Shown here piece by piece: positions 4,538 through 21,134 of a stretch of 32,591 bases of DNA. The DNA is taken from assembly GCA_034723595.1 (NCBI GenBank), contig JAYEPB010000100.1, forward strand, positions 1 through 32,591. Reading direction: 5' to 3'. The notes under the pieces were generated by a model that ran no database searches, was not told the origin of the DNA, and worked only from the letters and a program-made list of their open reading frames with translations. Within the stretch, counting starts at the first letter, position 1; every line of letters begins with the position of its first letter. A program made the position numbers and the translations under genes. The stretch comes from Nanobdellota archaeon. Lineage in GTDB: Archaea; Nanobdellota; Nanobdellia; Woesearchaeales; JAGLGH01.

Positions 4538-4780
4538 TCAACTCCCATAAAGCTCAATGCAGCATTTCTTACAATCACTAGTATTAAATGTAGGACCTGG
4601 ACACTTCTTCCCTCCATTATCATAACAAACTCCACCCTGTGATCCACAAGTCTTTGTCTGCTTGCCAAAATCTCCCATCTTGCCTGAGAATATAAAGATC
4701 ATTATAACAAGCACAATTAAGACAAGAACTGCAATAATTATCATATTCAAACTCAATCCCTGTCCTTTCTTTTTTCTCAC
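4538..4780 (-). CDS. Six-cysteine mini-pilin, paralog 3 (class III signal peptide)
   Basis: (V->M)RKKKGQGLSLNMIIIAVLVLIVLVIMIFIFSGKMG... is followed by a head of about 45 aa with six Cys that ends in CC. I prefer the GTG at 4780, which has GGTGA 5 nt upstream, over the track GTG at 4789. The gene abuts the convergent Lrp gene with a 0-nt gap. Confidence 0.7.
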   Translation of the reverse strand: MRKKKGQGLSLNMIIIAVLVLIVLVIMIFIFSGKMGDFGKQTKTCGSQGGVCYDNGGKKCPGPTFNTSDCKKCCIELYGS

Positions 4781-4789
4781 ATCAATCAC

Positions 4790-16802: not shown

Positions 16803-19800
16803 TTATTTGCAGCATAAAGCACAACTACTTAAATAATTTTCAGAATCATAATAATAAGATTGTTCACCCCAATCATCATATTCTGTATATTCTTTAAGAT
16901 AAGAACATTTAATCTGGGAGTCCCGATTACCAATTGTAACATCATCAGTTGCCCCTAGTATTTCAAGTGATTCATAATAATCTGTGATATCCCCGCTTTT
17001 TGAGAGGGTTACCTTAAACATTAGCTCAAAATATGTGTCAGCATCAAGATTAATCCTTTCTTCAAAAGGGTTATTAGTGGATGTTATATCCGGATTGCAA
17101 CCCTCTCCTATGCCAACATTAATTACCCTATCTTCATCAGCAGCACATTGAACATCACTTTCAGAGTCGCATAAAACATAACATTCGTCATATATGAATT
17201 CGCATTCCCCTTGACCATTGCATTCATAATATTTTGATGCGCACGCCCCGCAAGTTCCGCCACACAGATCATCTCCACATTGCTTTCCTAAGCAATCTGG
17301 TATGCATATGCAATCATTATCATAATCCCCACTGGAACATTTTTCATTTAATTCAGTTGAGTAGCCAACGCAGCCAACGCAGCAGCAGCCATTATCATCT
17401 GTACAGCTGCAATCAGGGTCATAATCACAATCAGCCTCATTGCAGATTTTATCGCATCCACAGGATATTGTTTGCGCATAACTGCATTCACCCAGACTGC
17501 ACGAACCTTGCTTATAGCAATTAAAATCTAAACAATAATCTGGGCAGGAAATTTCTATTGACTCACCAAATTCCAGGCACCCATCATCATTATAATCCAT
17601 GCATATCTGATAATGGGTATCATCTATGCATTCCTTTGCTCCATAATATGGACATGTATCTTCACAAATCTTGCAGGCATCATTAAAGCAGCCAGATTCG
17701 CATTGTACTTCACTATAGGCACAATCACCACCACTGCAATATCCTGAATGATAGCTGATATTGTTTTCACAATAATCATTGCACACTAATGCGAAATAAG
17801 GACTCCATTCCATGCAAGAGTCATAGTCATATAATCCGCATGTCTTATACTCCATGCCTGTACCGCATTGCTTTGATCCAAATGCAGTGCATTCATTACT
17901 GCATGTCTCTATGGCGCTTGCATTAATCCTTAATTTGGATGTCAGGTCCTGCCAAATCTCTTCTCCAATCTCATATCTTGAGAATATATAGTAGTTGTTC
18001 CCAGTTTTATTGCAGGCAATAGTTTCACCAGGATTAGTCTGGTATATTTCATTATATTTCTCTACATATTGGCAAATATCAATAGTCTCAAATCCATCAT
18101 AAGTCAATGCTATGAAATTCGTGGGACATGTGTTTGCAGAGCCTGAGTATATGGTATAATCAATAGCTTTACCATATGCAGCAATAAGATGTTTGCCTCC
18201 AGCATGAGTAATGTATATCTTATCAAAGTTCTGCATGTTGTTTATAAAATCAACAGGTATTGCACTCACTTCCCCATATAGCATAGTCTTTGGACCCCAT
18301 CCGATAATCCAGTCTAGCATGGCATCCATCACACCCTTGAGAAGAGGGCTAAAGAAATTAAGCCAATTGTTATTTGGCAGAGAGACAGTAATAAGGGAAT
18401 CTTTATTGAATATGATTGATTCAATATCATGATTATACCACCCTTTTCTATTATCACAGCTGACAAACTTGCCAGATGGCGCATCCTCTTCAGATACTTT
18501 TGCATCCTTGCACAAATTTGCGATTGGGTCACTCATCAGATTTTCTGAATCTATTGGCACATTGTAGCTTGTTCCTATAATAACATTGTCTTCATAACTC
18601 AGTATGCAGACATTATTGATGCAGGGAACTTGATACCCATCCCTGTTACAATTTTCAGGAAGTATATTCTTATATTCAGGAAGAGTCTTGTCATAGTCAT
18701 CGCAGTATAATGTGTACTTTTTTATGCTTTTTTCAGTAGCCATATTAATCATTGCCTGTGCTATCTGTTTTGTTCTGGATGTCCATTCTCCATCCTCACA
18801 ATATCTATCAAGGAAAGAATCTCCGTCTGCAACACAGATTGGTTTATCTGTATCAGTATAGAACTTATCAGGATTATCATTGCTGCCTGAAGATCCAGCC
18901 ATAGTTACCAGGCATTGATCTGCTCTTTGGCAGAATCCAACTTCTTCTTTATCCCAAGCTTCTTTTAGCTCTACTTCCACCCATTCTCCGTCATAGCATC
19001 TGTATCCATAGAAAGTGTCCAGGGTGCTGTCACTGATCTGGTTAGCTACGCAGTTAGTTCCATCCCAGCATTCGTCTACAGGGCAGCATGAACTGCTGCC
19101 AGAAATAGGAGATATACTAGCTGAAAGGTTTGTTTCTGTTATTTCTTTCCATTCACCCCAGTAACTGCAATAGGCATTAGATCCCAATGCTCCAGTTACA
19201 ATAGTGCATCGCTCTTTATCTTTAATAAGCTGTGTATCATTATGGAGGTCTTTTAATTCTAACAAGTATCCTTTGCCAGAATACCTCGCATTTTCTGCTA
19301 TTGCGCATCCAAGGAATTCCCCATTATAATTTATTACTTCTGCTATTTGCGCTCCATCTTCTGTAACATATGTGCCTTTCCTTATCGTTTGGCTCTTCCA
19401 GCATCCTCCATTTCCATCTGGGTCATTATAATATTCTTCTCCATCATCTGCCTCACCGCAGCAAAGGCTGCCAGTCCATATAAGAGGTTCGCCTGCAGGT
19501 GATTTTGCTTCATTGCATGATTCTCCTGTTGGGTCGCGATCATCATCAATATTGTCAAGGTCTGTTTGCAGCTCAGAATAGGTTGTGCAATAGTATGTTA
19601 CACCCCCTGTTTGTATGCTCTCTCCAGTCTCTAATCTTGTCCCTTTTCCAGGACTATAGATTGCGCTTATAGTTGAGTGTGGGTTGTCTTCTCCAGTACA
19701 TTCAGCAATCCTTCCTCTTATGCCATCATCATAACAAAGGAAATGATGCTCTGCGATATTTAATCTTGTTTCTGTAAAGTCAATTAAATTGTCTTGAGGA

Positions 19801-21134
19801 ATTGTTATAGGCTCAGATACAGCTTCATCATGGATTAAGCTATTAGGGGATTTGCAGACATGCCAGTTATTGCCGTCAGACACTGCGCTCTTTCCAAAGC
19901 ATTCAATATCAATTATTCCTCCCTGCGCTCCTTGTGCCATTATCCATTGCCAATAAGTCTCTCCGCTGCCAAAAGGTCCTGCATCCTGGGACTCATATGT
20001 GTCAAAACACACATCTCCTGAATCTACCATGCTGCAGTCATATCCATAATCAGATGTCATTACAAATACCTGAACTTGATCTGTAATATTTTCACCAATT
20101 TCAATAACAGTTGTTTGTGTCTCTCCAATATAAGCGCTGCTTGCTGGAAACATATACCTTTCAATGCTATCTTTATTTAGTTTCCCATTTGATTTATTAC
20201 GAAGATGAAATGTCAATGTAGTGTTTGAACTTATCTTTTCCACGAATTTAAGATTATCAGTTCTATATACTATTGTATGATTTATGTATGTTACTTCTAA
20301 AGACATATCTTCAAATCCCAAACCCTCATCACTTTCTACCTCTGTCATGCCTTTATATATCTCAAGGGTATATGTCTCTTCTGGCTCTGCTGTAAATATT
20401 CCTGTATTGACATAATGACCTGTGCATTGGTCATTCGTATCAATATGGAACATGTAAAGATCACCGTCTTCTGCAACAGTAGCCCCTGCGCTATTTGTTA
20501 TCTTAGCATACAATTCTGTATTATAAAGATAACACCCTTTAAGAATAAATCTCCATGATACTTGTTGGGTTTCCGGTACTTCAAAATCGACTGATTCATG
20601 CTGGATTGCTGTGCCTTCATAATGAAAGTTTACTTTTTTTGATGTAGGGGTCTTATGAATCTCAGGAATGTCTTCTTCATCTATTGTTACTATCACTGAC
20701 CATTCATCTACAAGGATTCCTGAATCATCTCCGCAGCATTCCCCCTCCCCATTGTCAGCATCAGCATTCCAGTCAGAGGCACCACAATCAACATCAGTGC
20801 AAAACTCTTCAATGCTATCATAATCCGAATAGTAAGCATATGTACTTGCATAATCACCATGGGTCCAGAATGTTGTAAGATATATCTTTTCATCATACTG
20901 GCATGGTCTGTCTTCCATTGTGCATTCTGTTGGACAATCTGGAGTATCCTTTCCAGTCTCATCTATGGGGCAGTCTTTCACTAGTGCTCCGCAGCTTGTA
21001 TTTCCATATGCGCAGTCATTTGGATGGATAGAGATTGGCGCATAAACAGAACTGCTTATTAAAATAAGGATTAATAATAAGAACAGAAACAATGATTGCT
21101 TCTTATATGTTATAATGCATACTTTATTTTTCAT
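16803..21134 (-). CDS. Giant (~1443 aa) secreted cysteine-rich protein
   Basis: The ATG at 21134 gives MKNKVCIITYKKQSLFLFLLLILILISSSVYA/PIS, a Sec-type signal peptide, with GAGGA upstream. The track start at 21185 is GTG. CCG(D/E) acidic motifs are present (GECCGDDSG, LCCGEADDGEEYYNDPDGNGGCW). A 247-aa segment near the C-terminus (about 17163-17903) holds ~44 Cys and includes CIPDCLGKQCGDDLCGGTCGAC. No C-terminal TM helix is present. Confidence 0.8.
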   Translation of the reverse strand: MKNKVCIITYKKQSLFLFLLLILILISSSVYAPISIHPNDCAYGNTSCGALVKDCPIDETGKDTPDCPTECTMEDRPCQYDEKIYLTTFWTHGDYASTYAYYSDYDSIEEFCTDVDCGASDWNADADNGEGECCGDDSGILVDEWSVIVTIDEEDIPEIHKTPTSKKVNFHYEGTAIQHESVDFEVPETQQVSWRFILKGCYLYNTELYAKITNSAGATVAEDGDLYMFHIDTNDQCTGHYVNTGIFTAEPEETYTLEIYKGMTEVESDEGLGFEDMSLEVTYINHTIVYRTDNLKFVEKISSNTTLTFHLRNKSNGKLNKDSIERYMFPASSAYIGETQTTVIEIGENITDQVQVFVMTSDYGYDCSMVDSGDVCFDTYESQDAGPFGSGETYWQWIMAQGAQGGIIDIECFGKSAVSDGNNWHVCKSPNSLIHDEAVSEPITIPQDNLIDFTETRLNIAEHHFLCYDDGIRGRIAECTGEDNPHSTISAIYSPGKGTRLETGESIQTGGVTYYCTTYSELQTDLDNIDDDRDPTGESCNEAKSPAGEPLIWTGSLCCGEADDGEEYYNDPDGNGGCWKSQTIRKGTYVTEDGAQIAEVINYNGEFLGCAIAENARYSGKGYLLELKDLHNDTQLIKDKERCTIVTGALGSNAYCSYWGEWKEITETNLSASISPISGSSSCCPVDECWDGTNCVANQISDSTLDTFYGYRCYDGEWVEVELKEAWDKEEVGFCQRADQCLVTMAGSSGSNDNPDKFYTDTDKPICVADGDSFLDRYCEDGEWTSRTKQIAQAMINMATEKSIKKYTLYCDDYDKTLPEYKNILPENCNRDGYQVPCINNVCILSYEDNVIIGTSYNVPIDSENLMSDPIANLCKDAKVSEEDAPSGKFVSCDNRKGWYNHDIESIIFNKDSLITVSLPNNNWLNFFSPLLKGVMDAMLDWIIGWGPKTMLYGEVSAIPVDFINNMQNFDKIYITHAGGKHLIAAYGKAIDYTIYSGSANTCPTNFIALTYDGFETIDICQYVEKYNEIYQTNPGETIACNKTGNNYYIFSRYEIGEEIWQDLTSKLRINASAIETCSNECTAFGSKQCGTGMEYKTCGLYDYDSCMEWSPYFALVCNDYCENNISYHSGYCSGGDCAYSEVQCESGCFNDACKICEDTCPYYGAKECIDDTHYQICMDYNDDGCLEFGESIEISCPDYCLDFNCYKQGSCSLGECSYAQTISCGCDKICNEADCDYDPDCSCTDDNGCCCVGCVGYSTELNEKCSSGDYDNDCICIPDCLGKQCGDDLCGGTCGACASKYYECNGQGECEFIYDECYVLCDSESDVQCAADEDRVINVGIGEGCNPDITSTNNPFEERINLDADTYFELMFKVTLSKSGDITDYYESLEILGATDDVTIGNRDSQIKCSYLKEYTEYDDWGEQSYYYDSENYLSSCALCCK

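Follow-up and report, generated by a model that had tools for sequence, protein, structure and literature searches.

The 32,591-bp contig JAYEPB010000100.1 of a Nanobdellota archaeon (assembly GCA_034723595.1; Woesearchaeales) was analysed over its entire length, here called the window; its G+C content is low (0.27-0.43). About two thirds of the window is taken up by the first part of a conserved super-locus in which minus-strand genes for proteins with pilin-like N-termini stand beside genes for two giant surface proteins. The window shows roughly the first two thirds of this locus, which, judged from the related loci compared below, comprises about 20 or more genes. A preliminary description of the DNA had placed the cluster at 4538-21134; the super-locus extends past these positions, takes in the genes at 1-797 and runs on beyond the left contig end. 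The pilin-like genes and the giants are listed here as they follow one another on the minus strand (aa, amino acids; the arrow marks the predicted cleavage position).

16803-21185, minus strand: G1460, Cys-rich giant, first gene of the super-locus
15447-16760, minus strand: P437, pilin-like, 437 aa; leader QKG↓QITFF, N-terminus MKQKG↓QITFFIIIGLVLIAIF
8852-15406, minus strand: G2184, giant, 2184 aa
8329-8859, minus strand: P192, minor-pilin-like, 176 aa from the GTG at 8859; leader KKA↓QITGQ, N-terminus MIKIKCKKA↓QITGQVFIYILALIIF
7053-8147, minus strand: P364, minor-pilin-like, 364 aa, largest of the conserved four; leader KRG↓SIEIQF, N-terminus MIKKRG↓SIEIQFNWIFILIAG
6541-7071, minus strand: P176, minor-pilin-like, overlapping the end of P364; leader RKG↓QVKMFE, N-terminus ...MKRKG↓QVKMFESIAVLIIFFF
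6035-6520, minus strand: P161, minor-pilin-like; leader KKG↓QMEIFG, N-terminus MRDKKG↓QMEIFGLVIIV
5058-5342, minus strand: small pilin sp94, 94 aa; leader KKA↓QGLSIN
4790-5050, minus strand: small pilin sp86, 86 aa, paralog; leader KKG↓QGLSMN
4538-4789, minus strand: small pilin sp83, 83 aa, paralog; leader KKKG↓QGLSLN
672-797, minus strand: 41-aa pilin-like mini-protein; leader KRG↓IAITL, N-terminus MVSLRKRG↓IAITLKIMIGLVIF
1-672, minus strand: P300-family pilin-like gene, cut by the contig end, N-terminal 224 aa present; leader KRG↓SSETT, N-terminus KRG↓SSETTMRIILAIIVILALLV

All ten pilin-like genes begin with a basic leader ending in [KR]-[GA], followed by 19-25 hydrophobic residues; the eight central genes and the two at 1-797 for which the preliminary description had reported such a leader and a hydrophobic helix are indeed present in the sequence. 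Five of them bracket G2184, which has a transmembrane (TM) segment of its own at residues 1997-2015, and the second, Cys-rich giant (1460 aa, with a Sec-type signal) lies directly upstream, both as originally described. The start of P192, whose original call was an open reading frame (ORF) of 192 aa, was corrected to the GTG at 8859, which yields 176 aa; that of G1460 is ambiguous between GTG 21185 (1460 aa) and ATG 21134. Inspection of the gene junctions confirmed the two overlaps noted earlier: the G2184 stop overlaps the GTG start of P192 (GTGATTAA at 8852-8859), and the stop of the 41-aa gene overlaps the start of the P300-family gene (TAATG at 670-674). The GTG start of sp83 directly follows the stop of sp86. 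The overlaps in the locus suggest translational coupling.

Gene order is conserved across related genomes

A profile of P364 recovered 2186 representatives (clusters at 50% identity), 1197 of them at E<=1e-30, with relatives encoded in 170 GTDB species genomes that are mostly titled Woesearchaeota or Nanoarchaeota (DPANN archaea). We fetched 80 loci out of these 170 genomes and compared 85 related loci in total, calling their genes and clustering them by BLAST (loci and gene families carry the prefixes L and f below). The order giant-P192-P364-P176-P161-small pilins is kept in about 70 of the 85 loci, so that the survey of gene order suggested in the preliminary description did find a conserved arrangement; P192 is present in 71 loci and P176 in 74, and homologs of G2184 stand directly upstream of P192 in 63.

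The consensus locus starts with the G1460 family (where present), P437, the giant, P192, P364, P176, P161 and one to three small pilins. It continues with a ~45-aa gene, a member of P300/f6/f9, a ~50-aa gene, and either f12 or a pilin-like protein of ~950-1400 aa, and it ends with f19/f23, f10/f20, f18/f11, f7, f26/f35, f16, f14 and an RPA-like gene, such that about ten further pilin-like genes lie between the small pilins and RPA. Families that alternate at one position are homologous by profile-profile comparison (f18 with f11, f9 with f6 and P300, f19 with f23, f10 with f20, and f26 with f35). In the closest long relative (56-60% identity), the locus is ~31 kb long; its last pilin-like gene codes for 277 aa, and RPA, YdjM and RadA come next. 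L089 has the same locus end.

Among distant genomes, too, the locus adjoins an RPA-like OB-fold gene and then YdjM (L087, 11294-12756; L089, 17706-19363; f13 in about 14 loci). The recurrence of the same housekeeping neighbours at the locus end argues for vertical inheritance at a fixed chromosomal site, rather than for a mobile island. Candidates for complete or nearly complete genomes with the locus are the 774-kb chromosome OZ246410.1 (locus at 162.7-183.8 kb), JACPJQ01, JACPMR01, JACPBQ01 and JGI Ga0315289_10000002 (497 kb). Many of the locus-bearing genomes have records titled 'uncultured Methanosarcinales archaeon' (L008, L012-L014, L031, L056 and others), and one locus each comes from records titled Aminicenantes and Dehalococcoidales bacterium; to judge from their content and composition, these oddly titled records are probably mislabelled or mis-binned DPANN contigs.

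N-termini of the pilin-like proteins resemble class III signals

The leader motif was scored with a purpose-made regular expression and with residue counts per position. The expression matches 10 of the ~24 genes of the window, as opposed to 3 of ~138 spurious ORFs of at least 40 aa, a difference in rate which indicates that the motif pattern exceeds chance; among the genes of the related loci, 609 of 1355 carry it. A basic residue followed by a small residue at position -1 marks a class III cleavage site. When orthologs from the 80 related loci were aligned on the last basic residue before the hydrophobic segment, position -1 proved to be G, A or S in at least 95% of the orthologs in five families. 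For P364 this holds in all 80 of 80 (G45/A34/S1), and for the small pilins in 75 of 76 (A30/G26/S19), the latter also having Q at +1 in 65, S at +4 in 65 and N at +6 in 72. P161 orthologs (n=70) have A, S or G at -1 in 68, and Q at +1, E at +3 and G at +6 in 67 each. Position -1 of the P192 orthologs (n=57) is A, G or S in 54 and position +1 is Q in 49 (the L002 ortholog begins MIKIKYKKAQ), and in the P437 orthologs (n=24) S, G or A at -1, Q at +1 and T at +3 are each found in 23.

The giants and family f14, encoded in the same loci, also have an N-terminal hydrophobic segment; at the equivalent position, however, they have E, I, V or D, and they lack the Gln. This internal control argues against the motif being that of a generic positive-inside anchor. 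A control drawn from genes outside the cluster gave about 2 matches among 13 in a left-flank set, a small one, after obvious cluster genes had been removed; in a first version of this control, the 'outside' set was contaminated by divergent cluster genes. Because the conserved motif precedes the hydrophobic segment, rather than following it, the data support a reading of the ten N-termini as class III (prepilin-type) signals and not as Sec signals, with cleavage at the motif predicted from conservation.

Architecture of the pilin-like families

AlphaFold2 (AF2) modelling of P364 (predicted local distance difference test score, pLDDT, 92.3) shows residues 7-60 as one unbroken N-terminal helix, after which come a beta-rich domain and, at the C-terminus, a bundle of helices; at 54 residues, the N-terminal helix is about twice the length of a membrane span. 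The model of sp94 (pLDDT 81) consists of a helix over residues 10-41 and a small head. Both models have a lollipop shape, with an extended N-terminal helix and a globular head. Across families, P176 and the downstream family f7 are similar over their full length (hhalign probability 87.5% over ~150 columns), which suggests an old duplication within the locus; most other similarity between families is limited, in profile-profile comparison, to the N-terminal helix. A word-indexed search returned 71 homologs of P364, of which the named ones are all called 'hypothetical protein' and assigned to Woesearchaeota or Nanoarchaeota, and the 124 homologs of sp94 are all unnamed or 'hypothetical'.

The small pilins differ along their length. 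In their alignment, the commonest residue is held on average by 82% of sequences over residues 5-33, versus 32% in the head, a contrast inflated by the homologs having been found through the conserved part. Cysteines 44, 51, 72, 90 and 91 (sp94 numbering) are conserved. sp83 and sp86 are 70% identical over 43 N-terminal residues, and sp94 is preceded by a TATA-like box of its own (5385-5393) and by the ribosome-binding site GAGGTG. With a conserved helix, a variable head, conserved Cys, tandem paralogs and a TATA-like box of their own, the small pilins resemble major pilins, and sp94 is a candidate major subunit. In L002, L003 and many other loci, the place of the 41-aa gene is held by genes for proteins of 42-64 aa that carry the motif as well; orthologs of the truncated P300-family gene are 300-311 aa long in L002 and L003.

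One family near the end of the locus departs from this pattern. Proteins of family f16 (17769-18809 in L059, and 12 other loci) join a pilin-like N-terminus to a D-Ala-D-Ala peptidase domain of the VanY/LAS type (VanY in Pfam, 29.2 bits against a cutoff of 25), and most of the 13 members retain the motifs SxHxxGxAxD and WHxE. The relative of window type (L087, 277 aa) consists of the N-terminal half only and lacks the peptidase domain. The f16 sequences hint that the apparatus may act on a peptidoglycan-type wall.

Two giant surface proteins

G2184 is a type I membrane mosaic with the following regions:

residues 13-31: N-terminal signal or anchor
residues ~35-560: Cys-rich region
residues ~600-1240: low-Cys, beta-rich region
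residues 1267-1590: six Cys repeats of ~54 aa, CGNGxxDxGExCD; further Cys-rich modules are also present
residues 1792-1980: ten TSP3-like DxDxDG repeats
residues 1997-2015: C-terminal TM segment
C-terminus: K/E/R-rich cytoplasmic tail of ~170 aa

The sole type of Pfam match to G2184 is TSP3_bac, at E 4.5e-5 and below the cutoff; a search against PDB sequences found none, and searches of Pfam, NCBIfam and PDB revealed no PilY1 or vWA domain in the giant. All four of the orthologs inspected have the C-terminal TM segment and basic tail. The Cys-rich giant G1460 contains 6.5% Cys and, apart from its Sec-type signal (...LLLILILISSSVYA), is free of TM segments; neither Pfam nor NCBIfam has a match to it. 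Its homologs include family f15, encoded upstream of P437 in 13 related loci. The Sec-like signals of the giants end in AxA-type sites (for instance VYA, or VFA↓QD in orthologs).

Two further observations concern these proteins. A few residues after the signal peptide, the giants have a CC(C) motif (VCCCY, GCCCN, YCCCY; residues 38-41 in G2184), which is kept in the L003, L013, L055 and L059 orthologs and in families f5 and f27. In L005 (5763-9974), the TSP3 giant itself starts KKKG↓QFDPITLLFVGIG, which is class III-like, whereas the giant of the window is Sec-like; the giant may be pilin-fused in some lineages.

Embedded genes, putative promoters and flanking features

Several other genes lie among or beside the pilin-like genes, and sequences resembling TATA boxes precede some of the genes:

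5435-5992, minus strand: PAS protein, cytoplasmic, 185 aa, without a signal
4082-4537, plus strand: Lrp/AsnC-family transcription regulator (HTH_24 and AsnC_trans_reg in Pfam)
3010-3927, minus strand: AbrB/SpoVT-type (MazE_antitoxin fold) DNA-binding protein with a PhoU-like C-terminal part (PF04014, 37.6 bits)
901-3027, plus strand: 708-aa cytoplasmic protein, function unassigned
21303-21311, plus strand: mirror TATA-like copy, 43 nt before a radical-SAM gene
21231-21239, minus strand: GTTTAAATA, resembling a TATA box, ahead of G1460 (distance to the GTG ~46 nt, to the ATG ~97 nt)
16790-16798, minus strand: GTTTAAATA, likewise resembling a TATA box, 30 nt ahead of the P437 start codon

The AbrB-PhoU and Lrp/AsnC pair stands beside the small pilins in at least eight distant genomes (L006, L007, L016, L023, L033, L053, L090 and L091); the AbrB-PhoU family occurs in 10 loci, and precomputed annotation describes the L006 member as MazE_antitoxin plus PhoU. 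The two are likely dedicated regulators of the locus. The PAS gene (TIGR00229, 23.2 bits against a cutoff of 22.9) interrupts the series between P161 and the small pilins; it is not found at that position in L002, L003 or the other related loci examined, a distribution that marks it as an insertion specific to the lineage of the window. The 708-aa protein has no match in Pfam and has relatives in 4 related loci, and L090 has a 582-aa gene in a similar place. By eye, its HGENWII...IDMED stretch is reminiscent of aminoglycoside or choline kinase-like folds.

Boxes of the form RTTTAAATA occur 7 times in the window, versus 3.0 expected, and 4 of the 7 lie ~30-100 nt upstream of first genes (three of them at 30-50 nt), namely G1460, P437, sp94 and the divergent radical-SAM gene. 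Their placement suggests that these boxes act as promoters and that there are at least three transcription units; the mirrored boxes at 21231 and 21303 suggest that promoters diverge from here and that the locus has its right boundary at this point. Beyond it, the plus strand at 21354-32591 encodes an unrelated set of proteins. Three are of the radical-SAM type, one of these being fused to a glycosyltransferase; the others comprise a U32 peptidase, several glycosyltransferases and, running off the right end, a multidomain protein longer than 1000 aa. This cluster, divergent from the pilin locus and not kept beside it in related loci, might be one for glycan or cell-surface biosynthesis. Scans of the window for tRNA genes and with Rfam gave no match.

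At the start of P364 there is a perfect 49-nt direct repeat (8103-8151 and 8263-8311) which duplicates the first 15 codons of the gene upstream of its true start, the two copies flanking a 111-nt insert that is richer in G+C. L003 (9785-10015) has an equivalent repeat and insert, in which the duplicated gene start is that of L003 itself and a core of ~60 nt is conserved, whereas the closer relative L002 is without it. The insert has no Rfam match, and its folding is not significant (z = -0.26). A site-specific mini-insertion, a leader or regulatory element, or a quirk of the assembly could each explain the arrangement.

Discussion

On balance, we consider it probable, with moderate confidence, that the locus encodes the structural subunits of a surface apparatus resembling a type IV filament (TFF), together with giant surface proteins, and that these are assembled in trans. 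For such an apparatus we infer cleavage, polymerisation, a division into shaft, tip and adhesin roles, and regulation, as follows. The pilin-like proteins would enter the membrane, where a class III peptidase of the FlaK/PibD/EppA type, encoded elsewhere, would cut after the small residue in [KR]-[G/A/S]↓Q; a TFF ATPase and platform, likewise from other loci, would then polymerise the freed N-terminal helices. The shaft would consist of the three small Cys-rich pilins (83-94 aa), their conserved helices bearing variable, disulfide-stabilised heads, and the quartet P192-P364-P176-P161, probably with P437, would form an initiation or tip complex. The anchored TSP3/Cys-repeat giant and the secreted Cys-rich giant would serve adhesion to a surface or a partner cell, and the embedded AbrB-PhoU and Lrp/AsnC genes would probably regulate the locus.

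Several results weigh against this proposal, beginning with the machinery. As the preliminary description had stated, no TFF ATPase, platform or prepilin peptidase is found in the window (no T2SSE-type Walker A, polytopic membrane protein or Pfam match); nor is any of the three found in the 85 loci, over 10 kb on either side of P364, and no machinery is found in the ~31-kb locus of the close relative, whose contig was followed 10 kb further. The T2SSE Walker A motif (GxTGSGKTT) is absent from the window and the 85 loci, in which there are only 12 generic P-loop ORFs, none of them ATPase-like in its context, and no polytopic platform or peptidase candidates inside the cluster; among representative downstream families, Pfam recognised only VanY in f16 and the RPA-like end gene. 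Models and folds point the same way. With whole pilin-like proteins, Pfam and NCBIfam returned only sub-threshold TM-like noise, and the archaeal pilin N-terminal models of NCBIfam found no match; the N-termini taken alone matched, at E<=10, none of the Pfam models for pilins or archaellins (PF04021 Class_IIIsignal, PF07790 Pilin_N, PF01917 archaellin). Foldseek against PDB gave best E values of 0.05 (P364) and 2.5 (sp94), with no pilin among the matches; for P364, Foldseek against BFVD gave nothing significant, and a profile search of PDB sequences found none. The structure and hidden Markov model (HMM) searches proposed in the preliminary description thus recovered no known pilin fold for P364 or sp94. 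Several of the pilin-like proteins are large (437 to ~990 aa) and could be plain N-terminally anchored membrane proteins, some 20 pilin-like genes are far more than any characterised pilus needs, and the TM anchor of G2184 sets it apart from a classical pilus-tip adhesin. He et al. reported type IV pilus components to be missing from DPANN genomes, and the supposed absence of pili has been used to tell DPANN from candidate phyla radiation (CPR) cells in micrographs.

Machinery supplied in trans is nevertheless plausible, because flaI, flaJ and flaK were reported in most Woesearchaeota metagenome-assembled genomes (MAGs) of one study and stand-alone pilin loci are known. In Lake Dziani Dzaha, flaB, flaH, flaI, flaJ and flaK were 'detected in most' Woesearchaeota MAGs, and archaellin-type genes were among the most expressed (PMC11606122); TFF system 1 and Aap-like systems have been reported in DPANN. 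When nanoarchaeal, Nanohaloarchaeota and Undinarchaeota genomes were surveyed earlier, TFF ATPases and platforms turned up but matching pilins did not. Stand-alone pilin loci and large adhesin-like proteins are both known features of archaeal TFF systems.

The same negative results supply much of the case for a rather unlikely alternative, in which the N-termini are uncleaved signal anchors and the type II membrane proteins so anchored, together with the type I giants, build an envelope or cell-contact complex, such as an attachment plaque or a sub-S-layer scaffold, and no filament. The want of a pilin HMM or fold and of machinery in cis in the 85 loci would fit such a complex, as would a gene number above that of any known pilus, the many large globular members (364, 437 and 943-990 aa), an enzyme domain (VanY/LAS peptidase) in one member family, and a giant anchored in the membrane with a long basic cytoplasmic tail. 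Yet a plain anchor needs no fixed small residue followed by Gln, and the families analysed above keep G, A or S at -1 in at least 95% of orthologs and Q at +1, two features that the giants and f14 are without. The N-terminal helix is moreover the most conserved part of the small proteins, as fits helix packing in a polymer; the 54-residue helix of P364 is about twice as long as a membrane span; and proteins of 83-94 aa with tiny heads make poor stand-alone membrane proteins and resemble major pilins of the Epd/Tad type. The class III signal of the preliminary description accordingly stands as far as motif position, conservation at -1 and +1 and the P364 helix go, and lacks the expected match to a pilin or archaellin HMM. 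We conclude that the families resemble type IV pilins in motif and architecture and yet fit no existing pilin family; the earlier suggestion of a type not yet characterised agrees with this, in that curated models and named homologs are lacking for every family of the locus.

Class III processing might also serve something other than a pilus. A pseudopilus or bindosome-like assembly, in which processed proteins on a short TFF stalk display domains that scavenge or attack a partner envelope while the giants are co-regulated but independent adhesins, would draw on the diversity of head domains and the number of families, and on the literature, which reports that class III signals occur widely among archaeal proteins other than pilins and proposes that such cargo serves to 'functionalise' TFF machineries; the f16 fusions in 13 related loci, with their peptidase motifs mostly intact, would be cargo of this kind. 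However, no substrate-binding or transporter domain and no ABC transporter was found in the window, loci and family representatives scanned, the window-type variant of f16 has no peptidase domain, and the tandem small pilins with their minimal heads look like filament subunits, not cargo, so that we hold this to be quite improbable. Ordinary Sec (class I) signals on a cluster of secreted or S-layer-associated proteins are the explanation to which we give least credence: it would account for the unmatched curated pilin models, and both giants do have Sec-like signals with AxA-type ends, but in the ten pilin-like genes the conserved motif stands before the hydrophobic segment, no conserved small-x-small site follows that segment, and no S-layer or known secreted-protein domain was found with Pfam or NCBIfam. 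The hydrophobic stretch, furthermore, is 19-25 residues long and continues as a helix; the h-region of a Sec signal is shorter than this.

Considered as a TFF-like apparatus, the locus is, by analogy, closest in working principle to the Epd/system 1 pilus of Methanococcus maripaludis. There, too, the leader ends in K-G with Gln at +1, as EppA requires (the +1 Gln is reported to be essential for EppA processing of Methanococcus pilins; PMC4390842), and the major pilin is tiny (EpdE, only 6.4 kDa when mature, PMC4390842, against ~8-9.5 kDa here). Several minor pilins are essential in the Epd system, adhesin-like proteins are encoded in or near its locus and extra stand-alone pilin loci exist, features that liken it to the present locus. 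In contrast, the Epd locus includes an ATPase, two platform genes and the dedicated peptidase EppA, whereas the window and related loci have none of these; PF04021 and other pilin models do not match the proteins here; the heads of the small pilins here are rich in Cys, and their position +6 is an invariant Asn where an acidic residue is usual; and about 20 pilin-like genes and two giants are present. The archaeal TFF systems 2 and 4A/4B/4G (Makarova et al. 2016; Sivabalasarma & Albers 2026) likewise encode multiple pilins together with large Ig-rich or PilY-like 'adhesin' proteins, and their major pilins are often stand-alone, presumably served by an ATPase-platform pair elsewhere. Those systems, however, are defined by that pair and by known arCOG pilins, whereas no family here has a model, and the giants here are type I membrane proteins of the Cys-repeat/TSP3 kind without a recognised adhesin domain.

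The likeness to the bacterial FimU-PilVWX-PilY1-PilE and GspH-I-J-K modules is one of layout only: four minor-pilin-like genes in fixed order, one of them (P364) much larger, adjoin a large putative adhesin near the major pilin genes, and some of the genes overlap. We detected no sequence or fold similarity to these modules. Although the four genes do stand beside the giant in about 70 genomes, the comparison with minor pilins and a PilY1-type tip adhesin made in the preliminary description fails for the giant itself, a type I membrane protein with a TM anchor and cytoplasmic tail and without the PilY1 beta-propeller or a vWA domain. The Phe+1/Glu+5 pair of the bacterial modules is also absent; P364 has Phe at +1 in 29 of 80 orthologs, but Gln or Phe at +5. 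With the Sulfolobus bindosome, the proteins share a class III-type N-terminus, diverse globular C-terminal domains and a coding site away from the TFF machinery; the scanned proteins include no substrate-binding domains or ABC transporters, and minimal small pilins and giants are found instead.

Other DPANN archaea, symbionts with small genomes, also have giant extracellular proteins, such as SPEARE of Nanohaloarchaeum, which are very large, repeat-rich and membrane-anchored and have been proposed to act in host contact; our giants may be comparable to them, and the conserved series of pilin-like genes is specific to the present locus. The features that set the locus apart from all known systems are the lack of cis machinery in the loci examined, the ~20 pilin-like genes, families without a model, the unmatched folds, the Cys-rich heads, the type I giants and, in some lineages, the LAS fusion. 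A bolder reading, which we regard as unlikely, would take these features together as a Woesearchaeota-wide surface organelle of about 20 components, made of unmodelled pilin-like families and without a motor of its own, which the FlaI/FlaJ/FlaK set of the archaellum or some other route would assemble into a host-contact or wall-breaching apparatus; the giants would anchor it, and in some lineages LAS peptidases would cut bacterial peptidoglycan.

To our knowledge, no Woesearchaeota are in culture, and little is known of how DPANN cells attach to their partners. Given the large family, the fixed gene order and the clear conservation of the cleavage site, the locus is a concrete candidate for the structural pilin genes that surveys of DPANN genomes have missed. 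The families described here can serve as profile seeds for annotating thousands of proteins now called 'hypothetical', and the peptidoglycan-type peptidase encoded in some of the related loci hints at the kind of partner.

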